The translations under genes and the position numbers were made by a program. Positions 19,137 to 38,593 of a DNA stretch of 64,000 nucleotides are shown here, piece after piece (the stretch's first letter is position 1; each line of letters starts with the position of its first letter). Source of the stretch: an uncultured Parachlamydiaceae bacterium. Its GTDB lineage: Bacteria; Chlamydiota; Chlamydiia; Chlamydiales; Parachlamydiaceae. Below the pieces are notes generated by a model that was given only the letters and a program-made list of their open reading frames with translations, did not search any database and was not told the DNA's origin. The stretch lies in NCBI GenBank assembly GCA_963742415.1, contig CAVULX010000003.1, positions 32,001 to 96,000 of the forward strand. The letters run 5' to 3'.

Positions 19137-20294
19137 ATGAATCGAACAAAAAGGTCAGCGATTGCGTTTGTCATTCTTATGGGAATGGTGAGTCTCTTTG
19201 GTGACATGACTTATGAAGGCGCGCGGAGCATTACAGGTCAATATTTGGCTATTCTTGGTGCAAACGGAGCCATCGTTGGCGTTATAGCTGGATTTGGGGA
19301 GTTCATTGGTTACGGCTTCAGGCTTGTTTCTGGATATGTCAGTGATAAGACGGGAAAATACTGGCCGATCACGTTCATTGGGTACACGATTAACCTTTTA
19401 GCTGTTCCCCTTTTAGCTCTAGCGGGCAATTGGCCTGTAGCTGCTGCTTTAATCATTATTGAACGATTCGGGAAAGCTGTCCGCTCCCCAGCCAAAGACG
19501 CGATGCTTTCATATGCGACTAAGGAAGTGGGACGAGGGTGGGGATTTGGCCTCCATGAAGCTATGGATCAAGCCGGAGCTATTATAGGCCCGTTAATGAT
19601 GAGTTGTGTTCTTTATTTTCATGGAACATATCAAGCAGGGTTTGCGCTTCTTTTAATTCCCGCTTTATGCGCCTTAGCCGTATTAACGTGCGCGAGAATT
19701 TCTTACCCTAGTCCGGAAAAATTGGAGATTGCGCAGCCCAAGTTGAGTGGAGAGCGTTTGAACAGGAAATATTGGCTTTATGTCATTGCAGTTTCATGTG
19801 TGGCGGCAGGTTATGTGGATTTTGCTTTGATTGCTTTTCATTTAAAAAAAGGATCGCTTATTTCAGATGCTTGGATATCTATCATTTTTTCTATTTCCAT
19901 GGGAGCAGCAGGGGTAGCAGCTCTAGTTTTTGGAAAGCTTTATGATCGGTGGGGTTTTTCCGTTTTAATTTTTGCGACAGCTCTTGCATCCTTATTCGCA
20001 CTATTGGTATTTATTGATGGATTTTATTTCGCGTTAGCAGGAATGATTTTGTGGGGTATGGGGCTGGGAACTCAAGAGTCGATCATGCGCGCCTTTGTGG
20101 CTGATCTTGTCCAGATGAATAAGAGAGCCACTGCTTATGGAATTTTGAATATCTGGTTTGGAATTTTCTGGTTTGTAGGAAGCGCTTTGATGGGTTTTTT
20201 ATATGATATTTCGGTGACCTATTTAATCATTTTTTCCATGAGCATCCAGCTCTGTTCCATTCCTCTCCTTTTTGCGGTGAAGCATTCAGAATGA
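19137..20294 (+). CDS. MFS transporter
   Basis: SLFGDMTYEG, SGYVSDKTG, ERFGKAVRSPAKDA, GKLYDRWG; ~12 TM helices. Confidence 0.9.
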   Translation: MNRTKRSAIAFVILMGMVSLFGDMTYEGARSITGQYLAILGANGAIVGVIAGFGEFIGYGFRLVSGYVSDKTGKYWPITFIGYTINLLAVPLLALAGNWPVAAALIIIERFGKAVRSPAKDAMLSYATKEVGRGWGFGLHEAMDQAGAIIGPLMMSCVLYFHGTYQAGFALLLIPALCALAVLTCARISYPSPEKLEIAQPKLSGERLNRKYWLYVIAVSCVAAGYVDFALIAFHLKKGSLISDAWISIIFSISMGAAGVAALVFGKLYDRWGFSVLIFATALASLFALLVFIDGFYFALAGMILWGMGLGTQESIMRAFVADLVQMNKRATAYGILNIWFGIFWFVGSALMGFLYDISVTYLIIFSMSIQLCSIPLLFAVKHSE

Positions 20295-20461: not shown

Positions 20462-21742
20462 ATGATCTTTGAATCATATAGTAGGGGAATAACTAATAGC
20501 CCCTTTGACATTGTTGGTGAAAGCGAATGGGGATTTAGTAGCAATTTTCATGATGTTGAGACTGTTGAAACCGGATTTATGCCAACAGACAATCTTTCAA
20601 CCGGAGAAAATGGTATTGACGAAATGTATGATGAGCCTCTTTCAATGGACCTAGTTGGAAAAATTGATCTGTTTAATCCATGTGTGGGTAATGACACTCA
20701 AAATTTCCCCTTTATAACGTTTGAAGGGTTAGGTAATTTTTTAAAATCACCATTTCAAGAAAATGCCCAAGAAGCCCTAGAACAAAATTCCTGCACCAGC
20801 AATACAGAAAACACACCCGAAGTTTCAAAAAAACGTACAAGAAAACCTTCTTCTGGTAAAAAAGAAACTCTCAACACCTCAAAAAAACGTAAAAAGGACC
20901 CTTATTCTTCTACTGAATATGGTAAAAGTTATCGAGAAGCCCAGAAAAAATATAATGAACATCTTGAAGAAAAAGTAACTGATTTGTTTAAAACTTTTAA
21001 AGATCTGTTGAAACAAATGAAAGCCAAGTCTCAGAATTCTCTACAGCCACCCGATCAAGACATGCTTCAGAAATCTTTTAATGAGCTTCGGGAATCTTTA
21101 CGGCCTCTAGATTATTCAAGTTGGAAGAATAAAAATAATGTAATTCCTTTTTCTGAATTTGCTAAATCTAAGTCAAATTTAAATCGTTCTTCATACTATA
21201 ACGATATTCGCGATAAATATAATAGTTACAAAATCTTATTAATAAATAAATTATTTAAAAAAATTAATCAAGGCCGTGCGTTATTGGAATTGACAGAGAT
21301 TATTGAGGAACCTGCTGTCTCTTTTTATGAATTTAGACAATCTATCAAGAACAAAGACCATTTAATAAGCAAATCTCAAACAGAAAGCCTCTCACAAAAT
21401 TCAAATCAAGAAAATCAAAAAATTTTTCTTGAAGGCTATAATATTAAAGCAATCGGCTACCTTTTGAAGGATAACCGCTTACTTGTAAAAAAGGATTCTG
21501 AGGCATGCATGATAGAGGCAAAATCATTAAAAGAATATTATATCAAGATCCGTCAACAACTTGTGAAAGATAAGATTCTCATTCTCGAAGAAAAAAGATA
21601 TAAATTTACAAAGGATTATATCTTCAGGACTCCCACATTGGCCGCCTCGGCAATTCTTGGAACGGCTGTTAATGGGAAAAGATATTGGAAAAATGAGTCA
21701 GGGCAATCTATTACAAAAGTCGAATCGAATAAATCGGTTTGA
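20462..21742 (+). CDS. Array member A1: acidic N-terminus + NLS + bZIP-like helical module + C-terminal DUF4357-like domain
   Basis: C-terminal LLVKKDSEA...YKFTKDYIFRTPTLAASAILGTAVNGKRYWKNESG; KKRTRK and KKRKK. Confidence 0.75.
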   Translation: MIFESYSRGITNSPFDIVGESEWGFSSNFHDVETVETGFMPTDNLSTGENGIDEMYDEPLSMDLVGKIDLFNPCVGNDTQNFPFITFEGLGNFLKSPFQENAQEALEQNSCTSNTENTPEVSKKRTRKPSSGKKETLNTSKKRKKDPYSSTEYGKSYREAQKKYNEHLEEKVTDLFKTFKDLLKQMKAKSQNSLQPPDQDMLQKSFNELRESLRPLDYSSWKNKNNVIPFSEFAKSKSNLNRSSYYNDIRDKYNSYKILLINKLFKKINQGRALLELTEIIEEPAVSFYEFRQSIKNKDHLISKSQTESLSQNSNQENQKIFLEGYNIKAIGYLLKDNRLLVKKDSEACMIEAKSLKEYYIKIRQQLVKDKILILEEKRYKFTKDYIFRTPTLAASAILGTAVNGKRYWKNESGQSITKVESNKSV

Positions 21743-21859
21743 TAAAAAACATCTTGATAATCTTAAATAGTGCTCAAAGAGAGTTGCGAATATTGAACAT
21801 GAAAGTCTTTGAATCAGTCTAAAACTAGATTAACCAATCATAAATATCTAAGGAGATCT

Positions 21860-23104
21860 ATGTACTCGGAAACAACTTTGAATAATGGAACTGCTTTTTT
21901 TAATATCCCCTTTGACTTTGCTTCTGAAAAGGGTACCATTGGTAGTTTTTATGTTGAAGAAACTATTGAAACTGGATGTATGCCAACAGGCGATCTTCCA
22001 ACTAGAGAAAATGATATTTTGTTTGATGATCCTCTTTCAATGGGCCTAGTTGAAAAAATTAATCTTTTTAATCCATTTGTGAGTAATGACTCTCAGAATT
22101 CCCCCTCTGTAACGTCAGAAGCATTAGATGATTTTTTAAGTGTATCATCTCAAGACAATGCCCAAGAAGTCCTAGAACAAAATTCCTGTATTAGCAATAA
22201 AGAAAACACCCCCGCAGTTTCAAAAAAACGTAAAAGAAAACATTCTTCAAAAGAAACTTCCTATGTCTCAAAACTACCTAAAACGGACTCTGTTTCTATT
22301 GAATATATGAAAAATTATCGAGAAGCCCAAAGAAATTATAATAAATATCTTGAAAAAAGAGTAGATGATCTATTTAAAACTTTTATAGATATGTGGGAAC
22401 AAATAAAAGCTAAGTATCAGAATTCCCTACAGCCTTTCGATCAAGACGTGCTTCAGAAATTTAAAGAGCTTCGAAAGTCTTTACGGCCTCTAAATTTTTC
22501 AAGTTGGAAGAAAAAAAATAATGTACTCTCTTTTCCTGTATCTAAGTCAAATTCAAAGCGTTCTACATTCTATAGAGAGATTCACGAAAAATATGATAAT
22601 TACAAAATCTCATTAATCAATAAATTATTTATAAAAATTAATGAAGGCCATGCGTTATTGGGGTGGCCAAAGCTTATCGAGGAACCTGTTATTTCTTTTT
22701 CTGATTATAGGCAATTTAACGATAACAATGACTATCCAACGAATCAAGAAAATCAAAGATATATTCTTAAGCGCAAAAGGAAAATTATTGCAATCGCCTA
22801 CCTTATGAGTGATAACCGCATGTGTGTAATGAAGGATTCTAAAGCACGCATGTCGGAGGCAAAATCCTTGAAAAATGGTTATTCCGAACTCCGTCAGCAA
22901 CTCGTGGAAGGTGGGATTCTAATTCCTGATGATAAGAGTCCAATTTCCGAAGAAAAACTATATATATTTACAACGAATTATACCTTCAAATCTGCCACAT
23001 CGGCTGCCGTGGCAATTCTTGGAAGAACTGTAAGTGGGAAAAATCTTTGGAAAAATGAGTCAGGGCAATCTATTACAAAAGTCGAATCGAATAAATGGGT
23101 TTGA
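21860..23104 (+). CDS. Array member A2 (same architecture as A1)
   Basis: AAGGAG RBS before ATG 21860; KKRKRK; FKSATSAAVAILGRTVSGKNLWKNESG. Confidence 0.75.
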   Translation: MYSETTLNNGTAFFNIPFDFASEKGTIGSFYVEETIETGCMPTGDLPTRENDILFDDPLSMGLVEKINLFNPFVSNDSQNSPSVTSEALDDFLSVSSQDNAQEVLEQNSCISNKENTPAVSKKRKRKHSSKETSYVSKLPKTDSVSIEYMKNYREAQRNYNKYLEKRVDDLFKTFIDMWEQIKAKYQNSLQPFDQDVLQKFKELRKSLRPLNFSSWKKKNNVLSFPVSKSNSKRSTFYREIHEKYDNYKISLINKLFIKINEGHALLGWPKLIEEPVISFSDYRQFNDNNDYPTNQENQRYILKRKRKIIAIAYLMSDNRMCVMKDSKARMSEAKSLKNGYSELRQQLVEGGILIPDDKSPISEEKLYIFTTNYTFKSATSAAVAILGRTVSGKNLWKNESGQSITKVESNKWV

Positions 23105-23151
23105 TAAACATTATGTAAATATACTTTAATATCAATAATTCAAGGAGATAT

Positions 23152-24012
23152 ATGACCATCAATTTACGTCCGACTGAGCCTAATATCTCAAGTATCAATT
23201 TTTGGGATGAAGGAGAAATTGAATCTGGATTGGAGTCAAGAAAAACTTTAAACGGAGGAAATGATGTTGACGAAATATTTAAGAGTGATGATTTATCTCT
23301 TGACCTGATTGAAAAAGTTGATTTTTTTAATCCATGTGGGGATCAGTATCTTCAAAAATTACCCTCTTATGCATCTGAAGATTCAGTGAATTTTGTTGAA
23401 AAAAAAACCGAGATGAATGAAGTGACTTATATAGTCGATTTTGTGGATAGGTTTGGGAAGAATATTGAATTTTCTTCCGGAGTTGATGATTTAGATGATA
23501 TAAAACTTCCTCCATCAAAAAAACGTAAAATTGGCCCATTAAATGACCAGAATATTTTTCAGACCAGACATGATGTCTCAAGTTCAGCAGAGGAAATTGG
23601 CGAAAAATATACTATAAAAGAGAATCAAATTTATGCTATCGGCTACCCTTTGGGCGGAAAGAGCATGCGTGTAAAAGAAGGCTCTACGGCGAGCCTGAGT
23701 GAGGTACCATTGTTAAATAAATGTCATGTCATATGCCGCAAAAGTCTTGTGCAAAATGGTGTTCTAACTGTAACTACCGATGGTACAAAATATAGATTTA
23801 CAAGAGATTTCGACTTCAAGTCATCCACAGGTGCTGCCTCGGTCATCCGCGGAAAAAATTCATGTGGGACTGTATGTTGGAAAAATGAGGCGGGGCTATG
23901 CATCAATAAAAAGAAATATCAGAGGACTAAGAAAGGTCAAATGAATTCTTCAAAAATACTTGCGAAAGGAACCGCGATCAACCGGTCTATAAGTGAGAGC
24001 CTGAATTTTTAA
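23152..24012 (+). CDS. Array member B1: acidic N-terminus + NLS + DUF4357-like domain
   Basis: PPSKKRKIGP; YRFTRDFDFKSSTGAASVIRGKNSCGTVCWKNEAG. Confidence 0.75.
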   Translation: MTINLRPTEPNISSINFWDEGEIESGLESRKTLNGGNDVDEIFKSDDLSLDLIEKVDFFNPCGDQYLQKLPSYASEDSVNFVEKKTEMNEVTYIVDFVDRFGKNIEFSSGVDDLDDIKLPPSKKRKIGPLNDQNIFQTRHDVSSSAEEIGEKYTIKENQIYAIGYPLGGKSMRVKEGSTASLSEVPLLNKCHVICRKSLVQNGVLTVTTDGTKYRFTRDFDFKSSTGAASVIRGKNSCGTVCWKNEAGLCINKKKYQRTKKGQMNSSKILAKGTAINRSISESLNF

Positions 24013-24185
24013 AATAACTAAAAAGGAAAGCAAACTGTCTTTATAACAAATTTTTATTTGATAAAAAACATCTTGATAATCTTTAATAGTGCTCAAAGAG
24101 AGTTGCGAATATTAAATATTGAACATGAAAGTCTTTGAATCAGCCTAAAACTAGATTAACAAATCATAAATATTTAAGGAGATCT

Positions 24186-25451
24186 ATGTCCTTTGGTATA
24201 AATTTGAATAACGGAACAACTTTTTGTAATAGCCCCTCCTTTGACTTTGTACCTGGAAGCGAACGGGGATTCAGTTGCAATTTTTATAATGATGAAACTA
24301 TTGAAAATGGATTTATGCCAACAGACAATCTTCCAACTGAAAAAAATGGTCTTTTGTTTAATGAGCCTCTCTCAATGGACCTAGATGTAAATCTTCGCAA
24401 TCCATGTGTGAGTAATGACACTCAAAGTTTTCCCTTTACAACGTTTGAAGAATTAGGTAATGATTTAAAATCGTCATCTCCAGACAATGCCCAAGAAGTA
24501 CTAGAACAAAATTCCGGTATCAGCACAGAAAACACCCCCGCATTTTCAAAAAAACGTACAAGAAATCCTTCTATTGATACAAAAGAAACTCTCAATCCCT
24601 CCAAAAAACCTAGAAAGGATCCTTATTCTTCCATTAAATATATGCAAAATTATCGAGAAGCCCAGAAAAACTATGAAGAATATCTTAAGGCAAGAGTAAA
24701 TGACTTGTTTAAAACTTTTTTAGTTCTGTTGAAACAAATGAAAGCCTATCATAAGAATTCCCTACAGTCTTTCGATCAAGACGTGCATCAGAAATTTAAC
24801 AACCTTCAAAAGTCTTTACGGCCTCTAAATTTTTCAAGTTGGAAGAAAAAAAATAATATACTCCCTTTTTCTGAAGTTGCTAAAACCCAGTCAGATTTAA
24901 AGAGTTCTACATACTATAGAGAGATTCACAATAAATATGATAATTACAAAATCTTATTAATCGATAAATTATTTAAAAAAATTAATGAAGGCCGTGCGTT
25001 ATTGGGGTTGCCAGAGGTTATTGAGGAACCCGCCGTTTATTTTTATGAATTTAGACAAAACGGCAATAACAAAGACTATCCAATAAGCAGATCTTACACA
25101 CAAAATACAAATCAAGAAAATCAAAAATATTTCCTTAAGAAAAAAAACAAAATTATAGCAACCGCCTCCCTTTTGCGTGGTAACCGCTTACGTGTAAAAA
25201 AAGATTCTGAGGCATATATGACGGAGGCAAAATCATCAAAAAAATGTTATATCAATATCCGTCAAAAACTTGTGAATGATGGGATTCTAATTCCCAAAAA
25301 TGAAAGATATATATTTACAAAGGATTATATTTTCAAGTCTGCCTCATTTGCTGCCTCGGCAATTCTTGGAGCATCTGTAGCTGGGAAAAGTCTTTGGAAA
25401 AATGAATCAGGGCAAAGTATTAAACAAGTCGAGTCGAATAAACAAGTTTGA
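24186..25451 (+). CDS. Array member A3
   Basis: AAGGAG RBS before ATG 24186; KKRTR, KKPRK; FKSASFAASAILGASVAGKSLWKNESG. Confidence 0.75.
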   Translation: MSFGINLNNGTTFCNSPSFDFVPGSERGFSCNFYNDETIENGFMPTDNLPTEKNGLLFNEPLSMDLDVNLRNPCVSNDTQSFPFTTFEELGNDLKSSSPDNAQEVLEQNSGISTENTPAFSKKRTRNPSIDTKETLNPSKKPRKDPYSSIKYMQNYREAQKNYEEYLKARVNDLFKTFLVLLKQMKAYHKNSLQSFDQDVHQKFNNLQKSLRPLNFSSWKKKNNILPFSEVAKTQSDLKSSTYYREIHNKYDNYKILLIDKLFKKINEGRALLGLPEVIEEPAVYFYEFRQNGNNKDYPISRSYTQNTNQENQKYFLKKKNKIIATASLLRGNRLRVKKDSEAYMTEAKSSKKCYINIRQKLVNDGILIPKNERYIFTKDYIFKSASFAASAILGASVAGKSLWKNESGQSIKQVESNKQV

Positions 25452-25497
25452 TAACCGTTTGTAAATACATTCTAATATCAATAATTCAAGGAGATCT

Positions 25498-25892
25498 ATG
25501 TTCATTAATTCATATTCGGCTGACTCTAATACCTTAAACGGCAATTTTTGGGATGTAGTAAAAATTGAATCTGGATCGGAGTCAAGAAACATTTTAAACG
25601 AAAGAAATTATGTTAATGAAATATTTAATAGTGATTTATCATTAAGGAGGCAAAATCGATAGATAAATGTTATGCCAAGTGGCGTAAAAAACTTGTGAAA
25701 AATGATGTTCTAACTGCAACTGAGGATGGAAAAAAATATAAATTTACCGCGGATTTCATCTTCCGGTCACCCTCACATGCTGCCTCGGTCATCTGCGGAA
25801 AAAATACAAGCGGGCCTGGAAATTGGAAAAATGAGGCGGGAAAAAGTATTAGGCAATTAATTGAAACGAAAAAAAAATTCAGAGGACTATGA
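25498..25892 (+). pseudogene. Array member B2: internally deleted, frameshifted
   Basis: B-type N-terminus (MFINSYSADSNTLNGNFWD...) is fused out of frame at ~25645 to a DUF4357 half (EAKSIDKCYAK...GPGNWKNEAG); ~660 bp missing relative to B3. Confidence 0.8.
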
Positions 25893-26084
25893 AAGGTAAG
25901 CAAATTGTTTTTTTATAATAAATTCGTATTTGCTAAAAAAACATTTTATACATTAAAGAGTAGATTTTTGTTTAATTAATTTTGTATAAATGTTAGGTTA
26001 TAAAAAATTAAATAGAATTCTACTATGAAGCATTAAATGTGCTATAGAATTTGATTAACTAATAACAATAATTTAAGGAATTAT

Positions 26085-26939
26085 ATGTCTACTCAACCTG
26101 TTTATTTTAATCCAATAAATTACCCTCTTACAAATTATTCAGGACTTGAAAGCCAACAAAAATCAGGTTTATGTTTTCAGGATTGCGATGTTCATAATGG
26201 ATCAGTAAGTGAATTGGAACCGAATAGCAATTATTCAAATGTTAATAAAAATTCATTTAACACAAAAAGTTTGGAAAAACTGGCTTATAAAACTCATCAG
26301 GTTATTGTTGGGGCTAATATATCTTTAGATTCTTCTGAACCCAAATATTTAGGAGCTTTTGACGAAACTACTGCCAATTCTCAAAGTGTCCTTAAGCAAA
26401 CTTCCCTCAACGACGATACAGATTGCCTCAGAGAGTCAAATAAACGTAAAAGAGAATCTTCAGCTCAAGCTCGAATTTCTCAAAAGCGTCCAAAGGGTTG
26501 GATTTTCCATACCGCAAATCCTGCAGTCAAGAAAAACTTAAAAAAGCCTTCTAATTTTCAAGACGTAGGTGATGCCCCAAACTCAAAATCAGAATCGGAT
26601 GAATACACTCTTAGGCGTAAAGAGATTCTTGCGACAGGCCAGCTTTTAAAAGATAATTCCATGCTTGTAAAAAAAGGTTCTACGGCTTGCATAGAGACAG
26701 TAGCATCAATGCATAATGGATATTTAAGACTCCGCGAAAAACTTTTGAAAAAAAATATTCTAGGTCTCGATCCCGATAGTGAAAATAAAAATTATATATT
26801 TAAAGATGAATATATCTTTAGGACGCCCTCACTAGCTGCCTCGGTGATCTCTGGGGCAAATGCAAGTGGAAGTGACTATTGGAAAAATAGGTCGAACCAA
26901 AGCATTAAGGCCGTCGAATTGAAGAAAAAAAATAGCTAG
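26085..26939 (+). CDS. Array member C1: low-complexity N-terminus + NLS + DUF4357-like domain
   Basis: KRKRE; YIFKDEYIFRTPSLAASVISGANASGSDYWKN. Confidence 0.75.
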   Translation: MSTQPVYFNPINYPLTNYSGLESQQKSGLCFQDCDVHNGSVSELEPNSNYSNVNKNSFNTKSLEKLAYKTHQVIVGANISLDSSEPKYLGAFDETTANSQSVLKQTSLNDDTDCLRESNKRKRESSAQARISQKRPKGWIFHTANPAVKKNLKKPSNFQDVGDAPNSKSESDEYTLRRKEILATGQLLKDNSMLVKKGSTACIETVASMHNGYLRLREKLLKKNILGLDPDSENKNYIFKDEYIFRTPSLAASVISGANASGSDYWKNRSNQSIKAVELKKKNS

Positions 26940-27019
26940 ACATTACTCGGCTATGAGCTTGAATGATTCGGGCATATTATAAAATTAGATTAACAAATCA
27001 TAAATATTTAAGGAGATCT

Positions 27020-28303
27020 ATGCTCCCTGGTACAACTTTGAATAGCGGAACAACTTTTTACAATAGCCCCGACTTTGTACCTGGAAGCGAATGGGGATTC
27101 GGTAGCAATTTTTGTGATGATGAAACTATTGAAACTGAATTTATGCTAACAAACAATCTTCTAACTGGAGAAAATGGTCTTGGCGAAAAGTTTAATGAGC
27201 ATCTTTCAATGGACCTAGTTGAAAAAATTGATCTGTTTAATCCATGTGTGGGTAATCACACTCAAAGTTTCCCCTTTACAACGTTTGAAGAATTAGGTAA
27301 TGATTTACAATCGTCACCTCAAGACAATGCCCAAGAAGTCCTAGAACAAAATTCCTGCACCAGCAATACAGAAAGCTCTCCCAAAGCTTCAAGAAAACGT
27401 AGAAGAAAACCTTCTATTGATACAAAAAAAACTCTCAATGCCTCAAAAAAACCTAAAAAGGACCGATATTTTGAATATAGAAAAAATTATCGAGAAGCCG
27501 AGAAAAATTATGATATATATCTTGAAGAAAGAGTAAAAAATTTGTTTAAAACTTTTATAGGACTGTGGGATCAAATGAAAGCCAAGCATCAGAATTCTCT
27601 ACAGCCTCCCGCTCAAGACATGCTTCAGAAATCTTTTAATGAGCTTCGGGAATCTTTACGGCCTCTAGATTTTTCAAGCTGGAAGATTAAAAATAATGTA
27701 CCTTCATTTACTGATTCTGCTAAAATTAAGTTAAATTTAAAAAATTCTACATACTATAAAGACATCCACGATAGATATAATAATTACAAAATCGTATTAA
27801 TTGATAATTTATTTAAAAAAATTAATGAAGGCCGTGCGTTATTGGGTTTGCCAGAGGTTATTGGGGTATCTACTGTTTCTTTTGATGAATTTAGGAAATA
27901 TATCAAAAATAAAGACTATCCCATAAGCAGTTCTCAAACACAGAGTCTCACACAAAGTTCAAATCAAGAAAATCAAAAATATATTCTTAAGGACAAGAAG
28001 AATATTAAAGCAATTGCTTACCTTTTGTGGGATAACAGCTTACTCGTAAAAAAGGATTCTGAGGCATGCATGATGGAGCCACAATCATTAAAGAAATGTT
28101 ATAGCAAGATCCGTCAAAAACTTGTGAAAGATATGGTTCTAATTCCCGAAAAAGGAAGATACATATTTACAAGTGACTATATCTTCAAGTCTCCCACATT
28201 TGCAGCCTCGGCGATCCTTGGATCATCTGTAAGTGGGAAAAAATATTGGAAAAATGAGTCAGGGCTAAGTATTGAACAAGTCGAATCAAAAAAATGGCTT
28301 TGA
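27020..28303 (+). CDS. Array member A4
   Basis: AAGGAG RBS before ATG 27020; RKRRRK, KKPKK; FKSPTFAASAILGSSVSGKKYWKNESG. Confidence 0.75.
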   Translation: MLPGTTLNSGTTFYNSPDFVPGSEWGFGSNFCDDETIETEFMLTNNLLTGENGLGEKFNEHLSMDLVEKIDLFNPCVGNHTQSFPFTTFEELGNDLQSSPQDNAQEVLEQNSCTSNTESSPKASRKRRRKPSIDTKKTLNASKKPKKDRYFEYRKNYREAEKNYDIYLEERVKNLFKTFIGLWDQMKAKHQNSLQPPAQDMLQKSFNELRESLRPLDFSSWKIKNNVPSFTDSAKIKLNLKNSTYYKDIHDRYNNYKIVLIDNLFKKINEGRALLGLPEVIGVSTVSFDEFRKYIKNKDYPISSSQTQSLTQSSNQENQKYILKDKKNIKAIAYLLWDNSLLVKKDSEACMMEPQSLKKCYSKIRQKLVKDMVLIPEKGRYIFTSDYIFKSPTFAASAILGSSVSGKKYWKNESGLSIEQVESKKWL

Positions 28304-28346
28304 CAAACTTTTGTGAACACCCTCTATCAATAATTCAAGGAGATAT

Positions 28347-29372
28347 ATGTCCATAGATGCACTGACTGACTCTAATACCTTAAGCTGCAGTTTTTGGGGT
28401 GAAGTAGAAATTGAATCTGAGTTAAGAGACATTTCAAATGAAGGAAATTATGTTAATAAAATATTTAATAATAATTTATCACTTGACCTGATTCAAAGAA
28501 TTGATTTTTTTAATCCATGTGCGGGGGAATATCTTCAAGACGTACCCTCTTTTACATCTGAAGATTCAGGAAATTTTGTAATGACATTTCAAGGAAAGCC
28601 ACCAGAAGTTCAAGAGCAAAATTCCTACGCCATCAGTACAAAAAAAACTCCTAATAACACGAAAAAACGTAAAATTGAGCCTTTATATTATCCTGATTGT
28701 GTAAAAAGACCTACGTATTGCGACCCGAACGTTTCTCTGTCAACTTTATTTTACAAGTATTATAGGCAGGAACCAAATGCTTGTTTTGATATCGAAGAAA
28801 TTCCTGAAGAGAAAGCTGAGATGAATTGTACAGATGAACCGACTTATATGGTCGGTTCTGAGGATAGGTTTGGGAAAATAATTGTACCTTCTTTCGGTGT
28901 TGATGATTTAGGTGATATAGAACATCCTGTCTCAAAAAAAAGTAAAATTGACCTTTTACATCATGCACAAAATGCTCAAAAAACTCTAAATGACCGGAAT
29001 ATTTTTCAGGCCATATGGGATGTCTCAAGTTCAGTAGCGGAAATTGGCGAAAAATATATTATAGAACATAAACAGATTTATGCTATCGGCTACCTTTTGA
29101 ACGATAACCGCATGCGCGTAAAAGCAGGTTCTACGGCATACCTGATGGAGGCAAAATCAATAGGTAAATGTTATGCAAGATGCCGTAATGAACTTATAAA
29201 AAGTGGAGTTCTAACTGTAACTGACGATGGTACAAAATATAGATTTACGGCAGATTTCGTCTTCAAGTCACCTTCGCGTGCTGCCTCGGTCATCCGCGGA
29301 ACAAATACAAGCGGGCCTGGATTTTGGAAAAATGAGGCGGGGAAAAGTATTAGGCAATTCAAAGGACTATGA
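28347..29372 (+). CDS. Array member B3
   Basis: KKRKIEP; YRFTADFVFKSPSRAASVIRGTNTSGPGFWKNEAG. Confidence 0.75.
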   Translation: MSIDALTDSNTLSCSFWGEVEIESELRDISNEGNYVNKIFNNNLSLDLIQRIDFFNPCAGEYLQDVPSFTSEDSGNFVMTFQGKPPEVQEQNSYAISTKKTPNNTKKRKIEPLYYPDCVKRPTYCDPNVSLSTLFYKYYRQEPNACFDIEEIPEEKAEMNCTDEPTYMVGSEDRFGKIIVPSFGVDDLGDIEHPVSKKSKIDLLHHAQNAQKTLNDRNIFQAIWDVSSSVAEIGEKYIIEHKQIYAIGYLLNDNRMRVKAGSTAYLMEAKSIGKCYARCRNELIKSGVLTVTDDGTKYRFTADFVFKSPSRAASVIRGTNTSGPGFWKNEAGKSIRQFKGL

Positions 29373-29425
29373 AAAGTTAAATCTAGTGAGGCATGCCAAT
29401 AAAGTTATTTGATAACAAATGTAGC

Positions 29426-29590
29426 TATACACAAACAACTTGAAAAATCGGTTTTAGGCTTAAGCGAAAGCTCTCGCGATTCGACTTCCGGAATCGACCC
29501 CATATTATAATATTGGGTCGATTCCGGAAGTCGAATCGCGAGAGCTTTCGCTTAAGCCTAAATTCCGATTTTTCAAGTCGTTTGGGTATA
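29426..29590. mobile_element. 165-bp near-perfect palindromic MITE (TATAC...GTATA ends)
   Basis: Self-complementary over almost its whole length; same termini as 38381-38459; absent from the paralogous site at ~23940. Confidence 0.8.
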
Positions 29591-29887
29591 ACATCGGCCC
29601 GACTATCAACTGTTACTTGAATTCTTCAAAAATACATGCGAAATTGAACCATGATCAACCTGTCAATAAGCGAGAGCCTTAATTTTTAAAATAATTAAAA
29701 AGGTAAGCAAATTGTTTTTTATAATAAACTTGTATTTGCTAAAAAAATTTTATTCATTAAAAAAGAGATTTTTGTTTAATTAATTTGGTAGAAATGTTAA
29801 GTTATAAAAATTTAAAAGAATTCTAATATGAAGTATTAAAAGTGTTATAAAATTAGATTAACTAATGCCAATAATTTAAGGAGATAT

Positions 29888-30676
29888 ATGTCTGTAAATC
29901 CAACCAATTTTAATTCAATAAATTATGATACTAGATACACTCATGCAAGATTTGAAAGTCAACAAGAACCAAGTTTAAGTTTTCAGGGTGGCGGCATACC
30001 TAATGAATCCGTATGTGAATTGGAATTGAATAACAACCTTTCAAATGAAAACGAAGATATTAAAAATTTATTTAACACAACTGATTTAGAAGAACTGGCT
30101 AAAGAAATTGATCGGTTTAATCCATATAATTTTGAATGTGAGACTGATATATCTTTAAATTTAAACTTTTTTCAATCCAAAGAATTAGGTTCTTTTGACG
30201 AAACTTCTACCGATTCCCGACAAGTCCCAGAACAAAATCCCTCCATCGACGATACAGATCGTCCCAGAGCGTCAAAAAAACGTAAAAGAGAACCTTCAAT
30301 TCAAGGCGAAAGTGATACTCCAAATTCAAAATCAAAATTGCAAGAATATATTCTTGAACGTAAAGGTATTCTTGCAAAAGGCCAGCTTTTGACAGATGAT
30401 TCCATGCTTGTAAAAAAAGGTTCTACGGCTTGCATGGAGACGGTACCATCAATAGCTAGAGGATATTTAAAACTCCGCAAAGAACTTTTGAATAAAAAAA
30501 TTCTAGTTCCCGATAGTGGAAATAAAAAATATATATTTACAAATGATTATACCTTCGGGAACTGGACAATAGCTGCCTCGGTGATCTCTGGGGTATGTGT
30601 AAGTGGAAGTAAATTTTGGAAAAATTCGTCGATCCAAAGCATTAAGGCCATCAAATTAAAGAGAAAAAATAGCTAG
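29888..30676 (+). CDS. Array member C2
   Basis: KKRKREP; YIFTNDYTFGNWTIAASVISGVCVSGSKFWKN. Confidence 0.75.
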   Translation: MSVNPTNFNSINYDTRYTHARFESQQEPSLSFQGGGIPNESVCELELNNNLSNENEDIKNLFNTTDLEELAKEIDRFNPYNFECETDISLNLNFFQSKELGSFDETSTDSRQVPEQNPSIDDTDRPRASKKRKREPSIQGESDTPNSKSKLQEYILERKGILAKGQLLTDDSMLVKKGSTACMETVPSIARGYLKLRKELLNKKILVPDSGNKKYIFTNDYTFGNWTIAASVISGVCVSGSKFWKNSSIQSIKAIKLKRKNS

Positions 30677-30765
30677 ACATTACTCGGCTATAAGATTAAA
30701 TGATTCTAAGTAGTGGGGCATTTTATAAAATTAGATTGACTAATACCAATAATTTAAGGAGATAT

Positions 30766-31545
30766 ATGTCTTTTGATTCAATCTATTGTAATTCAACAAA
30801 TTATTATAATTATAGTAACAATTATTCAGGACTTGGGAGTCAACATGAATCGGAATCGAATAACAACCTTTCAAATGAAAACGAAGCTATTGAAGAATTA
30901 TTTGAGACAAATTATTCAGAAGAACTGATTAAAAAAATTGATAGCTTTAATCCATTTAAAGTTGAATGTGAGACTGATATATCTTTAAATTTAAACTTTT
31001 TTGAATTCAAAGATTTAGGTTCTTTTGACGAAACTTCTACCGATTCCCGACAAGTCCCAGAGCAAAATCTCTCCATCGACGACACAGATCGTCCCAGAGC
31101 GCCAAAAAAACGTAAAAGAGAACCTTCAATTCAAGGCGAAAGTGATACTCCAAATTCAAAATCAAAACCGAAAGAATATACTCTTGATTCTAAAGGTATT
31201 CTTGCAAAAGGCCAGCATTTGGAAGGTAATCTCATGCGTGTAAAAAAAGGTTCTACGGCGTGTAAGGAGATGGCAAAATCAATTAGTGAAAATTATTCCA
31301 CACTCCGCAATCAACTTTTGGACAATAAAATTCTAGTTCTCGATAGTCTAAAAGAAAAATATGAATTTACAAGCGCTTATACCTTCCAGTCCCCCACACA
31401 AGCTGCCTCGGTGATCCGTGGAGCAAATACAAATGGGAGAACTTCTTGGAAGAATACTACCTCGAAACAAAATCTTAATGATGTCGCATGGAATAAAAAA
31501 AGAGCTAGATTTTTCGAGACTATGGAGTTGAATGATTCTAAGTAG
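30766..31545 (+). CDS. Array member C3
   Basis: AAGGAG RBS before ATG 30766; KKRKREP; YEFTSAYTFQSPTQAASVIRGANTNGRTSWKN. Confidence 0.75.
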   Translation: MSFDSIYCNSTNYYNYSNNYSGLGSQHESESNNNLSNENEAIEELFETNYSEELIKKIDSFNPFKVECETDISLNLNFFEFKDLGSFDETSTDSRQVPEQNLSIDDTDRPRAPKKRKREPSIQGESDTPNSKSKPKEYTLDSKGILAKGQHLEGNLMRVKKGSTACKEMAKSISENYSTLRNQLLDNKILVLDSLKEKYEFTSAYTFQSPTQAASVIRGANTNGRTSWKNTTSKQNLNDVAWNKKRARFFETMELNDSK

Positions 31546-31580: not shown

Positions 31581-31915
31581 GAATTTTATGCCGTCCTTAC
31601 AGGACTCTGTTTTTTTTTGCATTTTACCCAGGCCTTCGCTTCGCTACGACCTGGGCTGTGATATTCCGCGCCTTCGGTGCTGAAAACGGCCTGAAAGGCC
31701 GAAATGTTATAGCCCAGGTCGTAGCGAAGCGAAGGCCTGGGTAAAATGCAAAAAAAACAGAGTCCTGTAAGGACGGCATATTTTTTTATAGAGGGAAGTT
31801 TCAGGAAAAAATTTGCAAGCTTTTGGGGCTAAAAGCCATATTATTTGCAAATTTATTTAGACCAAAAATGCATGCATACCTTATTATCAATGGGAAATTA
31901 CTACGAATTCAGCAC
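31581..31915. repeat. Composite REP-like palindromic element, copy 2 (inverted relative to 3796-4206, without the internal duplication)
   Basis: Hairpin TATGCCGTCCTTACAGGACTCTG...CAGAGTCCTGTAAGGACGGCATA plus AT-rich arm ending GAATTCAGCAC. Confidence 0.9.
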
Positions 31916-31935: not shown

Positions 31936-32919
31936 CTAAATTGTTAATACAGCAGACCCTTCTAGCGAGCCATTTCTAATAGCTTCAAGAGCTTGATTCG
32001 CTTTTTCAAGAGGATAGGGAGTTGCAGTTATTTGCAAATGCACCTGTTTCACAACTTTCATAAAATCGATCCCATCTTGCCGTGTCAAATTGGCAACGGA
32101 GGACATAGATCTCTCTTCCCATAATAAAGCATAGGGAAAAGAGGGAATATCGCTCATGTGGATTCCAGCACTGATGACTTTCCCCCCTTTTTTTATGACT
32201 TTAAGAGCTTGAGGATATAAGGCTCCTACCGGGGCAAAAATTAAAGCGGCATCTAAGGCAGCGGGAGGAAGCTGGTCAGACCCGCCAGCCCATTTAGCGC
32301 CAAGAGATCGAGCAAACGCTTGGGTTTTTTCATCTTTAGGGCGTGTGAAAACATAAACCTCCCGCCCAAGTGCGTTTGCTATTTGGATTAAAATGTGGGC
32401 TGATGAACCGAATCCATAGAATCCGATCCTCTTATTTGGTTCTGCCAATCGGAAAGCCCGATATCCAATAAGGCCAGCGCATAGCAGCGGAGCACAATGC
32501 AGATCATCATATTCGTGAGGTAGCTTTAAAATGAAATCTTCATGAGCTGCACAATACTCGGCGTATCCCCCATTAAGCAAATAACCTGTGTATAGGGCCT
32601 TGTCGCAAAGATTTTCCCTACCGGAAGCACAAAACTCGCAAGTATGGCAACAGCTGCCTAACCAGGGAACACCAACCCTGTCTCCAATTTGATGTTTTGA
32701 AACTTTTTGCCCTATCTGATCGATAATCCCCACCACTTGATGACCTAAGATCAAAGGCAGCTTGGGATTTGGAAGTTCCCCATCGACGATGTGCAAGTCT
32801 GTGCGGCAGACTCCGCAAGCAGCGACTTTGATGAGCACTTCGTCTGGTTTTGGTGTTGGACGTGGAACATCCTTTAAAATTAAAGGATCCCCTATCTTTT
32901 CCAGTACCATCGCACGCAT
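31936..32919 (-). CDS. Zinc-dependent alcohol dehydrogenase family protein
   Basis: CGVCRTDLH, LGHQVVG, CCHTCEFC..GRENLC, APLLCAGLIGY, GFYGFG. Confidence 0.92.
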   Translation of the reverse strand: MRAMVLEKIGDPLILKDVPRPTPKPDEVLIKVAACGVCRTDLHIVDGELPNPKLPLILGHQVVGIIDQIGQKVSKHQIGDRVGVPWLGSCCHTCEFCASGRENLCDKALYTGYLLNGGYAEYCAAHEDFILKLPHEYDDLHCAPLLCAGLIGYRAFRLAEPNKRIGFYGFGSSAHILIQIANALGREVYVFTRPKDEKTQAFARSLGAKWAGGSDQLPPAALDAALIFAPVGALYPQALKVIKKGGKVISAGIHMSDIPSFPYALLWEERSMSSVANLTRQDGIDFMKVVKQVHLQITATPYPLEKANQALEAIRNGSLEGSAVLTI

Positions 32920-33193
32920 GCGCCGCTCTTGATTAAAGGATATTTACATACACTCTGTCATATTTATTTTAAATGGACAATTCCCATTTTAGTGCTGTCA
33001 GTAAAAATACAAATGCGTATTTGCGGATTGATTTTGTCGCATAAAAATAGATCTGGAAACAATCATTTTGTCGATTTGCAGATTTTTTTTTGATTATATA
33101 AAACTATCTGCAAACCGACATTTTGTTTATTTGCAGATTGACTTTATATATAGAAAAAATGTATTCTATGCTCAAAGTATAGGAGAATTAAAA

Positions 33194-34627
33194 ATGAAAC
33201 CAGCCCAATTTATTGGCCGCGAAGCTGAAATGAGAAGGCTGAAAGGGCTTTTAAATAAAAAAAGTGCAAGCCTTATCGTGGTACGAGGCAGAAGGCGAAT
33301 TGGTAAAAGCAGGCTTTTGGCTGAATTTGGAAAGGAAATGAAAAGTTTTTTCTTTTCTGGAAATCCTCCAGTGCGCAAAACAACAGCTCAATCTCAACGC
33401 GATGTCTTTGCTCATCAGCTTGAAAGAGCGGGTATTCCTGGTGTTAAGCCAGATGATTGGGGCAATCTCTTTTGGCATCTCTCTAAGCATACTCAAAAAG
33501 GACGAATTCTTATTGTATTTGATGAAATTTCATGGATGGGAGGAAAAGATCCTCATTTCTTAGGACAGTTGAAAACTGCTTGGGATATGTATTTTAGCAA
33601 AAATCCACATTTAATTATTGCGCTTTGTGGTTCAATTTCTTCATGGATTGAAAAAAATATTCTAAGTAGCACAGGATTTCTTGGAAGAATTACGATTGAT
33701 CTTGTTCTTGAAGAGCTTCCCTTACATGTCCTGTAATGCTTTCTGGCATCCAAAAGAAAAACGTATTACAGCTTATGAAAAATTCAAACTTTTATCTGTA
33801 ACAGGAGGAGTTCCTCTCTATCTTGAACAAATTAGACCAAATCTTCCTGCAGAGCAAAATATTCAAGATCTTTGTTTTACTAAAGGTGGATTGCTTGTTC
33901 GAGAATTTGATGAGATATTTTCAGATCTTTTTTCTCGTAGTAAAGGGAGTCATAAAGAAATTGTTACTTGTCTTGCGAATGGTCCAAAAGAACTTGCTCA
34001 AATTTGTAAGGAATTGGAAAAAGCCAAGGGGGAATATTCAGCAAGTATTTGGATGAATTGGTAAAGGCAGGTTTTGTAAAAAGAGATTTTACATGGGATC
34101 TAAAAAATGGAAAAGAAGGAAAATTAAGTCGTTATCGTTTAAGTGATAATTATTTGCGCTTTTATTTAAAATATATTGCTCCAAATCGTGCCAAAATTGA
34201 AAAGGGGAATTTTCCGACTTCAATGCTTAACCATCTTCCTGGTTGGGAAGGTATTATGGGATTGCAATTTGAAAATCTTGTTGTTCATAACTTTAAAAGT
34301 CTCTGGAAGATGTTGAATATTTCTCCAGAAGAAGTAGTAATGGATGGACCATTTTTTCAAAACTCAACAACCAGACAACCTGGATGTCAAATCGATTATA
34401 TGATCCAAACACGTTTTCATAACCTATATTTATGCGAAATTAAATTTTCAAAAGCTCCTGTTGGGAAAAAAATAATCGAAGAAATGGAAGAAAAAAGAAA
34501 ACGTTTAAAAGTTCCTAGGCATTTTTCTATTAGACCTGTTCTAATTCATGTAAATGGTGTCGAAGACAGTGTTTTAGATGAGGGATACTTCGATAAGATA
34601 ATCGATTTTGGTCAACTTTTAGAGTAA
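33194..34627 (+). CDS. Archaeal-type AAA/ATPase_2 protein with DUF234-like PD-(D/E)xK tail; two apparent frameshifts (~33730, ~34020)
   Basis: FIGREAE, Walker A GRRRIGKS, Walker B IVFDEISW, GGVPLYL, QIDYMIQ..LCEIKF; three ORFs join into one. Confidence 0.85.
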
Positions 34628-38374: not shown

Positions 38375-38593
38375 ATAATGTATACCCAAACGACTTGAAA
38401 AATCGGAATTTAGGCTTAAGCGAAAGCCTAAAACTGATTTTTCAAGTCGTTTGGGTATAAGTTGAAAATTTCTGCGTAATCAAGTTTAAAAACCTCTGTG
38501 TCCTCTATGATCTCTGTGGTTGAATTTTAACAAACCACGGAGATCACAGAGAACACAGAGAGACAATAAATTTAATTTTTTGCAACTTACGTT
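38375..38593. mobile_element. MITE-like element, left copy (TIR GTAAGTTG...CAACTTAC, internal CTCTGTG/CACAGAG 9-bp units)
   Basis: Inverted copy of 39788-39923; supplies the TAA stop codon of the adjacent gene. Confidence 0.7.
38381..38459. mobile_element. Short MITE with TA target-site duplication, nested in the end of another element
   Basis: TA-[TACCCAAACGACTTGAAAAATC...GATTTTTCAAGTCGTTTGGGTA]-TA; the empty site ATAATGTAAGTTG is seen in the sister copy at 39911-39923 (reverse complement). Confidence 0.85.

Follow-up and report, generated by a model that had tools for sequence, protein, structure and literature searches.

A tandem array of acidic-headed DUF4357 proteins in an uncultured Parachlamydiaceae bacterium: candidate effectors aimed at the host nucleus

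Here, we describe an array of co-directional paralogous genes, nine intact and one a deletion remnant, that spans positions 20462-31545 (+ strand) of a 64,000-nucleotide stretch of DNA from an uncultured Parachlamydiaceae bacterium (assembly GCA_963742415.1, contig CAVULX010000003.1, positions 32,001 to 96,000; hereafter, the window). Their products join an acidic N-terminal head and lysine/arginine (K/R) clusters reminiscent of a nuclear localization signal (NLS) to a C-terminal DUF4357 domain (PF14267) from which the usual nuclease half is missing, and we consider it fairly probable that they are type-III-secreted, nucleus-targeted effectors that bind DNA or chromatin. An earlier note, made from the sequence of this stretch, had proposed much the same role; that interpretation is partly supported, in that every part of it that can be tested on sequence held up, and from these parts we infer secretion, nuclear import, DNA binding, and an effect on host transcription.

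The open reading frame (ORF) list bears out the ten co-directional paralogs of the earlier note, B2 pseudogene included, as nine long ORFs and one short one. By alignment they fall into type A (A1-A4, 414-427 aa, with A-type members 60-68% identical to A1), type B (B1, B3, and the remnant B2), and type C (C1-C3, 259-284 aa), all on the + strand. A1 (20462-21742; 426 aa) consists of an acidic, disordered head, the clusters KKRTRK (20828-20845) and KKRKK (20882-20896), a helical middle, and the C-terminal DUF4357 domain (58.5 bits at residues 364-416). It is followed by A2 (21860-23104; 414 aa; KKRKRK at 22223-22240; DUF4357 46.0 bits), by B1 (23152-24012; 286 aa; 47.8 bits), which has an acidic head, a PPSKKRK cluster (KKRK at 23518-23529), and a 38-residue tail, and by A3 (24186-25451; 421 aa; 66.5 bits), which is preceded by AAGGAG at 24176-24181, carries KKRTR (24549-24563) and KKPR, and corresponds to the 421-aa database gene call P0001. 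Beyond the B2 remnant (25498-25892) lie C1 (26085-26939; 284 aa; 52.7 bits), with the cluster SNKRKRESS (KRKR at 26442-26453); A4 (27020-28303; 427 aa; 61.8 bits), with RKRRRK at 27392-27409 and a middle that aligns to a bZIP protein discussed below; B3 (28347-29372; 341 aa; 61.3 bits; identical to P0010), with TKKRKIEP (KKRK at 28662-28673) and a degenerate second cluster, KKSK; C2 (29888-30676; 262 aa), with SKKRKREPS (KKRKR at 30275-30289); and C3 (30766-31545; 259 aa; 58.5 bits), with PKKRKREPS (KKRKR at 31105-31119).

The claim that each gene has its own ribosome-binding site (RBS) proved correct when the 100 bases upstream were aligned, with AAGGAG-N4-ATG invariant in 10/10, and it is the starts first read for A2, A3, A4, and C3 that had to be revised. 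Because the invariant AAGGAG precedes the ATGs at 21860 (A2), 24186 (A3), 27020 (A4), and 30766 (C3), we place the starts there and not at upstream TTG or ATG codons; the stored protein-database gene calls agree with the revised starts, the A2 call being 414 aa with an open frame that extends back to TTG 21809 and the C3 call (P0008) being 259 aa with an open frame that extends back to 30700. A TATAAAAnTAGATTAAC stretch is also conserved ahead of AAGGAG in most copies of types A and C, A1 being the exception.

Self-comparison with blastn shows an A-B-C unit duplicated segmentally at 74-86% nucleotide identity, as in 24146-25641 versus 26980-28481 (80.8%) and 26526-27022 versus 30271-30768 (80.1%). 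The array grew via tandem duplication of this unit, and since its members are clear paralogs from segmental duplication, their likeness is not due to chance. The first of these matches, together with that of 25646-25858 to 29147-29359, also defines the lesion in B2, which lacks an internal stretch of about 665 bp equivalent to B3 28481-29147. What is left is a 54-codon N-piece (25498-25662) that stops at TAG 25660-25662 and a 65-codon C-piece (25695-25892) that holds most of DUF4357 (60.6 bits). As the earlier note had remarked, the block is AT-rich, with a G+C content of 31-36% against about 40-48% across most of the window.

Pfam confirms the DUF4357 signature first recognized by eye in 10/10 products (E <= 5.8e-9). 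Measured against the gathering score of 38.4 bits, nine of the ten lie above it in hmmscan (46.0-66.5 bits) and C2 below (36.2 bits); in a six-frame search of the genome all 10 exceed the cut-off, C2 with 38.9 bits. The shared domain is longer than the roughly 85 residues initially proposed, covering about 105 residues, and it is basic (isoelectric point, pI, 9.3-10.2). NCBIfam returned no family for the five of ten array proteins submitted. The proposal that a nuclease has been replaced is well borne out by the PADLOC models for PDC-S14, a GIY-YIG-type nuclease plus DUF4357 (301-320 positions). The three of nine intact members submitted (A3, B3, C2) match only profile positions ~176-313, a coverage of the C-terminal ~115 positions, whereas an eleventh DUF4357 gene of the genome, located on another contig (L001, 286 aa; G000:C2:250908-254069, gene at 1456-2316), matches positions 13-296 of 301 (E 2.3e-96). 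Because the array hits the C-terminal part alone and this canonical copy hits the full length, the nuclease half has been lost in the array. In this domain, the canonical copy and other nuclease-type copies are 28-33% identical to A3, and 16 alignment columns do not vary between the array and the canonical copy.

When the A3 domain (25116-25451) was modeled alone with an alignment of 18 sequences (nine from the array, eight canonical chlamydial DUF4357 domains, and one Sulfurimonas GmrSD-type domain), AlphaFold2 returned a small beta-sheet/helix unit with a predicted local distance difference test (pLDDT) score of 94.3. Among 48,161 chains compared with this model by VIA-align, only two reached Z>=5, and both are RAMA domains that bind double-stranded DNA (dsDNA): the CcrM C-terminal domain (6pbd_B; Z 6.4, root-mean-square deviation [rmsd] 2.1, 66 residues) and the mouse MPND RAMA domain (7ydt_A; Z 6.2, rmsd 2.5, 68 residues). 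The C-terminal part of a full-length A1 model also matches MPND (Z 6.3). In addition, a 132-aa chlamydial protein (L021; G405:C62) is matched on one stretch by DUF4357, RAMA, and DUF2924, all below cut-off (RAMA 28.4 bits versus 35.2), and aligns to the array domain profile at 93% probability; it may bridge these three Pfam families as ones that belong together. We regard a link between the DUF4357 fold and RAMA as probable, short of proven, since the Z values lie under 8. MPND RAMA is reported to bind dsDNA through backbone contacts with no sequence preference, with flanking acidic regions that damp DNA binding and promote histone binding (PMC9963953). Selective binding of N6-methyladenine (6mA) DNA by the same domain has been claimed (PMC6591016) and, according to the available text of PMC9963953, was not reproduced there. 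Next after RAMA in the structural comparison came eukaryotic SAND domains (GMEB1, Z 4.6; 1ufn, Z 4.5). SAND has a conserved KDWK motif, DUF4357 carries an invariant W-K-N, and a deep RAMA/DUF4357/SAND relation may be worth testing.

Upstream of this domain, the AlphaFold2 model of A1, for which the nine paralogs served as the alignment, is disordered over residues 1-149 (pLDDT <50, block means 24-44) apart from a short helix at 63-71, forms long helices of middling confidence over residues 151-312, and closes with a compact domain at residues 319-425 (block-mean pLDDT 81-92). The N-termini are as acidic and aromatic-dotted as the earlier note had described: the regions ahead of the first K/R cluster are 105-140 residues long, with a pI of 4.05-4.66, 14-27 acidic versus 3-11 basic residues, 10-14 aromatics, and a serine/threonine/asparagine/glutamine content of 23-39%. 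Their initial 20 residues are rich in serine, threonine, and asparagine and hold 0-4 charged residues, a composition compatible with a type III secretion signal but not diagnostic of one. Two motif islands in the head, an LS(M/L)DL(V/I)EKIDxFNP block (LSxDLxxKIDxFNP) and a QEVxEQN(S/P) block, are common to all three types, and the K/R cluster comes right after the second of these (SKKRKRKxS, TKKRKIEP, SNKRKRESS, S/PKKRKREPS), at one aligned site in the A, B3, and C members; in B1, the cluster PPSKKRKIG is positioned further downstream than in other members. An NLS-like cluster had been claimed for every intact member, and a run of at least four K/R residues is present in 8/9, with A3 offering only KKRTR and KKPR. 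For the A-type middle, a VIA search of the full A1 model against a structure library gave helical rows at Z 6-8.5 for residues 142-284, and because this is under the tool's line for helical bundles we claim no fold for it. A search of the ESM Atlas with the A3 N-terminus and middle gave no usable match.

The middle of the A-type proteins does have a relative in the window. Outside the array, 7 kb downstream of it and in the window's most AT-rich kilobase (29.6% G+C), lies a gene (38587-39750, - strand) whose 387-aa product combines an acidic head and K/R clusters with three basic regions of the eukaryotic bZIP type and scores 47.7 bits with bZIP_2 (cut-off 22.3) and 41.8 bits with bZIP_1 (cut-off 27.6) over three stretches. 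Comparison of the A-type profile with this protein by hhalign gave a probability of 83.8% (E 7.9e-6, 116 columns, 32% identity), over an alignment that spans the K/R clusters through YLEERVKNLFKTF...SLRPLxFSSWK, and pairwise BLASTP gave E 2e-4. Homology of the A-type middle to the bZIP protein is thereby supported at the level of sequence. We describe the module as bZIP-related and not as bZIP because the basic-region signature is gone and no model matches over its cut-off.

Transcription-factor-like genes occur elsewhere in this genome as well. Six zinc-finger genes of the GATA type stand in a row at G000:C4:1280967-1289216 (+; 296-409 aa), five of them over the Pfam cut-off and most with K/R clusters (e.g. 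KKRKR, KKKKR, KRRK). Four Myb-type genes, whose acidic heads have an SQIW-like motif in common, stand in a row at G000:C4:318218-321855 (+), and two further Myb genes lie elsewhere, one (G000:C3:202161-203069, +) for a 302-aa product in which four Myb repeats are accompanied by a PKRKRE cluster and one (G000:C3:887165-887671, -) for a product of 168 aa. A search of the genome for HMG boxes gave no match, but its controls were also silent. We screened the 1,533 ORFs of at least 200 aa for the layout of the array proteins, defined as a head with a net excess of at least 8 acidic residues and, behind it, KKRK or KRKR within 220 residues, and recovered nine ORFs, six of them array members; the other three carry bZIP, Myb, and GATA domains, all over Pfam cut-offs. 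As read from the predicted proteins, then, the design of a head plus K/R cluster recurs on GATA and Myb proteins of the same genome. Four same-family bZIP ORFs (L023-L026) likewise show a start rich in serine, threonine, and asparagine, an acidic stretch, a K/R cluster, and a basic region in the same order. In samples of the phylum, GATA was found in 7/299 other genomes and bZIP_1 in 6/301 genomes at E <= 1e-4 (3 over cut-off), the latter sample having missed the array-bearing genome (G000) itself, with only 19 of its 29 candidates scored. A literature search found no chlamydial bZIP genes described, by title or abstract, and a full-text search found no paper combining bZIP, Chlamydiae, and eukaryotic-like.

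The array appears to be peculiar to this genome. Protein, profile, and contig searches found no homolog of the same architecture in other organisms, in agreement with the earlier note, and because none was found elsewhere, the architecture cannot be called common in free-living bacteria, an outcome that the note had named as speaking against its reading. Against 5.8 billion proteins, A3 retrieved the four A-types and three nuclease-type proteins of ~278 aa that cover 18-22% of the query, and C3 retrieved only C3 and C2; the A3 domain region alone retrieved three of the genome's own A-types from the protein database. A profile of the A-type head and middle, run without a word filter against 1.84 billion representatives, gave two matches, A1 and B3 themselves, and in its own genome gave 7 matches, all within the array. 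A single-protein search of genome contigs returned one GmrSD-type DUF4357 protein, from a Sulfurimonas metagenome-assembled genome, and pattern scans of metagenome contigs and viral contigs revealed no related locus. DUF4357 itself is present in 0/40 relatives (24 from this bacterium's family and 16 from its order) and in 9/399 other genomes of an even phylum sample, in which one further genome was unscorable, always as a single copy; the eight of these matches that exceed the cut-off are nuclease-type proteins with open frames of 204-301 aa, and the ninth is the small L021 protein introduced above. Our full-text literature search located no description of such a DUF4357 family, the passages it returned on DUF4357 coming from papers concerned with restriction systems.

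When 21 domains were placed in a maximum-likelihood tree, the nine from the array grouped as a single clade (support 86/95) on a stem of 0.86, apart from all 12 canonical rows, the genome's own canonical copy among them. That copy groups instead at 100/100 with a near-identical gene (L014; G295:C82) of a different family, on branches of 0.10 and 0.06, and this near-identity suggests recent horizontal transfer. Descent of the array from the genome's canonical DUF4357 gene was considered and rejected, as the tree places that gene with L014, far from the array. The simplest history for these sequences would be one domain capture and one fusion, followed by local duplication.

Pairwise comparisons within types gave whole-gene ratios of nonsynonymous to synonymous change (dN/dS) of 0.71-1.22 at dS 0.18-0.37, using the Nei-Gojobori method (NG86), which ignores transition bias and gene conversion. 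The ratio is near 1 in head, middle, and folded domain alike (regional range 0.54-1.64), and the three youngest GATA pairs give 0.71-0.86. Control TLC paralogs (two pairs, same script) have a proportion of synonymous differences (pS) saturated at 0.78-0.82 and a proportion of nonsynonymous differences (pN) of 0.33-0.38, so the script does separate a constrained family. Nevertheless, nine frames of 259-427 codons remain open despite 15-35% pairwise nucleotide change; in a neutral simulation (2,000 trials per gene), an open frame was left in 0-1.05% of trials at 10% change per site and in 1.2-9.7% at 5%. Across types, at dS of about 0.5-0.7, the alignment of the motif islands and of the K/R cluster is preserved. 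We read this pattern as one in which most residues turn over strongly while the protein must be kept, as is usual for host-interaction families, because the frames are open, the RBS is invariant, and the motif islands and 16 domain columns are fixed.

The 2.69-Mb genome (4 contigs) carries four TLC nucleotide-transporter genes, two FHIPEP genes, and one Hc1 histone-like gene; the type III export gate and its flagellar counterpart both belong to FHIPEP. Chlam_OMP6 scored 21.5 bits, below cut-off. The chlamydia-like setting assumed in the earlier note is thus borne out by TLC x4, FHIPEP x2 (the export gate family), and Hc1, a gene set that fits a chlamydia-like, obligate intracellular lifestyle.

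Comparison with known systems sets the array apart from each of them. Like PDC-S14 GIY-YIG/DUF4357 proteins, its members end in the ~105-residue domain and match the same PADLOC models over ~176-313, but in place of the nuclease half they have an acidic head, a K/R cluster and, in the A-types, a bZIP-related module, and they form ten tandem copies in a clade of their own on a long stem, whereas elsewhere there is one copy per genome; because the nuclease half is missing, we do not count the array as a PDC-S14 member. The nearest solved folds to its domain are the RAMA domains of CcrM (6PBD) and MPND (7YDT). MPND, a nuclear deubiquitinase with an N-terminal RAMA domain, is described as having acidic flanks and acting on chromatin (PMC9963953, PMC6591016), and CcrM has its RAMA domain at the C-terminus; the array proteins differ from both in having no attached methylase or deubiquitinase, and their binding of DNA or 6mA is putative. 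TAL effectors of Xanthomonas and Ralstonia are described as type III substrates in which NLSs are combined with a part that binds DNA and an acidic region acting in the host nucleus (PMC7819608). The TAL-effector-like design suggested in the earlier note stands as an analogy of design logic and goes no further: the array domain has a different fold that is probably not base-specific, the acidic part is N-terminal, and there are no 33-35-residue repeats. No array protein matches Pfam TAL at E <= 1, the AlphaFold2 model contains no repeat solenoid, and because there are no repeats the array proteins are not TAL effectors. Chlamydia type III effectors described as reaching the host nucleus or nuclear envelope are NUE, a SET-domain methyltransferase, and SinC, which binds the nuclear envelope, and these are the only chlamydial ones named in the available text of a review (PMC7819608). 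Neither has a DNA-reader domain like that of the array, and the Pfam results contain no sequence or domain relation of the array to either. Closer in genome organization are the F-box/BTB families NEX and PEX of Parachlamydiaceae, which are reported as lineage-specific tandem arrays with copy numbers that vary greatly among close relatives (PMC4209131); the present array is likewise a lineage-specific tandem duplication. NEX and PEX proteins carry ubiquitination-related domains and have a reported dN/dS of 0.29-0.63, compared with a putative DNA reader and 0.71-1.22 here, and families of this type were positive in a heterologous type III assay (PMC4209131), whereas export of the array products is predicted from the genes.

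Together, these observations lead us to favor a lineage-specific effector family that would be delivered into a eukaryotic host by an obligate intracellular chlamydia-like bacterium and aimed at the nucleus. In the order of the protein, the start rich in serine, threonine, and asparagine would serve type III export through the disordered N-terminus, the K/R cluster behind the disordered acidic segment would mediate importin-dependent nuclear entry, and the basic C-terminal domain of ~105 residues, putatively the DNA-sensing half of a GIY-YIG/DUF4357 defense nuclease, would dock through its RAMA-like fold on the DNA or chromatin of the host. Host factors may then be recruited or displaced by the acidic head with its motifs, whether through transactivation or, as for MPND, through binding of histones; in the A-types, a bZIP-derived helical module would come in addition.

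Several findings weigh against this picture. The layout screen was framed after the array had been seen, and just 6/9 array members pass it. A3 lacks a run of four K/R residues, and such runs are not rare in this AT-rich genome: [KR]4+ occurs in 149 of the 1,533 ORFs of at least 200 aa (9.7%), and KKRK or KRKR in 42, of which 8 are array members. The nine members are not nine independent observations because they are paralogs. The bZIP homology comes from one profile comparison at 83.8% probability; a search of the genome with the A-type profile hidden Markov model missed the bZIP gene at E <= 0.1, and the A-types are without the bZIP basic-region signature (the best bZIP_2 match, A4, scores 16.0 bits, E 0.013, against a cut-off of 22.3). 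A complex prediction for two A-type middles (residues 120-275) scored 0.01, without a verdict on a dimer. Similarity to RAMA is moderate: the tool advises caution under Z 8, and the values here are 6.2-6.4. A Foldseek search of the PDB with the A3 domain model gave no match at E <= 0.001, and the best E in a PDB sequence profile search was 0.15, which is not meaningful. Likewise, the Pfam RAMA model (PF18755) matches 0/10 array proteins at E <= 1; the RAMA relation named in the earlier note is probable from the nearest solved folds and the L021 sequence bridge. Finally, a dN/dS near 1 is equally expected from relaxed constraint, and the B2 copy has already decayed.

The last of these points raises the possibility that the array is a by-product of runaway tandem duplication, with copies decaying by neutral drift and having no present function. 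In this case, whole-gene dN/dS of 0.71-1.22, with about 1 even in the folded domain, the deletion in B2, and the absence of the family from the relatives searched would all be expected, and non-adaptive birth-and-death has been argued to contribute to such expansions (PMC4209131). We nonetheless hold it very improbable: nine long frames are open where simulation at 10% change keeps 0-1.05%, AAGGAG-N4-ATG is invariant in 10/10, the canonical copy and the array have sixteen invariant domain columns in common, and motif islands and K/R cluster remain aligned across types at dS of about 0.5-0.7.

The proteins could instead work at another place or on another target. DUF4357 is otherwise known from prokaryotic restriction and defense proteins, described as an accessory domain of GmrSD-type, GIY-YIG, and T5orf172 proteins (PMC4619093) and as fused to McrB homologs (PMC11090510), which also counts against a role in the host and would suit DNA-binding regulators, nucleoid proteins, or a sensor or decoy of a PDC-S14-derived defense inside the bacterium, with the head as a DNA mimic or auto-inhibitor. 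Array domains match the PADLOC candidate-defense models PDC-S57 and DUF3780 besides PDC-S14, the genome's canonical PDC-S14 gene adjoins a PD-(D/E)XK/Cas4-like gene (Pfam, PADLOC) and a toxin-antitoxin-like pair (judged from their sequences), and the acidic regions of MPND are reported to inhibit DNA binding by RAMA (PMC9963953). Such an intrabacterial role seems unlikely to us, given that the array has neither a partner gene nor a nuclease or NTPase domain, that the A-types share homology in their middle with a bZIP protein of eukaryotic type, that the same layout bears GATA and Myb domains in this genome, and that no other searched genome has more than one DUF4357 copy. Moreover, disordered heads of 105-140 residues with eukaryote-style K/R clusters are atypical of bacterial DNA-binding proteins. 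Alternatively, the proteins may be secreted toward a non-transcription target, such as giant-virus factories, competing symbionts, or organelle DNA, or may merely tether to chromatin. Descent of the domain from a defense nuclease that presumably sensed foreign or modified DNA points this way, as does the high dN/dS with kept frames, which would fit an arms race, and chlamydial symbionts have been reported to protect amoebae from giant viruses. DNA binding by RAMA is also reported to lack sequence specificity (PMC9963953). Yet the nuclear-import-type K/R cluster is conserved at the same alignment position in the A, B3, and C proteins, the design is akin to that of bZIP, GATA, and Myb proteins, which are known to act in the nucleus, with the A-types related in sequence as well, and the array proteins carry no nuclease or other effector domain with which to damage foreign DNA; we therefore rate this option as rather unlikely and retain nucleus-targeted, DNA- or chromatin-binding effectors as our favored explanation.

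The array lies between a gene for an MFS transporter (19137-20294) and one for a zinc dehydrogenase (31936-32919, -), genes that in the nearest complete relative with both flanking genes (G335) are 2.5 kb apart and in a different orientation; as these flanks are rearranged and that genome has no further ORF in common with the window region, a clean insertion site cannot be drawn. Counts of promoter sites (40) and terminator sites (7) were uninformative against shuffles (45.6 +/- 6.5 and 6.8 +/- 2.7). Just past the last array gene, a 13-base palindromic hairpin, GTCCTTACAGGAC, with a T-run behind it lies at 31593-31605 and occurs again, inverted, at 31762-31774; the paired GTCCTTACAGGAC hairpins, 170 bases apart, are possibly terminators that face each other. 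Further along, three overlapping ORFs at 33068-34627 (+; 33068-33736, 33681-34064, and 34049-34627), the first with an ATPase_2/AAA_16-type domain, look like a single ATPase gene broken by frameshifts. The fourth, divergent TLC transporter of the genome is also encoded in the window, at 6649-7956 (+; G000:C3:38649-39956), and scores 71.9 bits versus 630-696 for the other three.

Bacterial effectors that enter the nucleus are known, and few of them bind DNA directly, TAL effectors being the classic case. The array would belong to this known kind, and its new element, if our reading is right, is a defense-derived, RAMA-like DNA reader used as the warhead; it would then represent a new route to an effector, in which the DNA-sensing half of a defense nuclease is cut off and combined with an acidic head and with signals for export and nuclear entry. 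A more far-reaching version, which we regard as possible but doubtful, is that the bacterium fields a transcription-factor-like battery made up of the GATA, Myb, and bZIP sets and the array, with a defense DNA sensor re-purposed to read eukaryotic chromatin, possibly marked with 6mA, and paralogs diversifying by an arms race against loci or partners. N6-methyladenine is abundant in many protists, and, if our reading is right, the nine diverged RAMA-like domains would offer a natural series for asking what this little-understood fold reads, the disputed 6mA question included. If the battery exists, the array would be the first defense-system DNA sensor turned host-nucleus effector and the first DNA-binding effector family in Chlamydiota. 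If our main reading is right, the array and the GATA, Myb, and bZIP sets together would point to an environmental chlamydia that copies the transcription factors of its host on a large scale.

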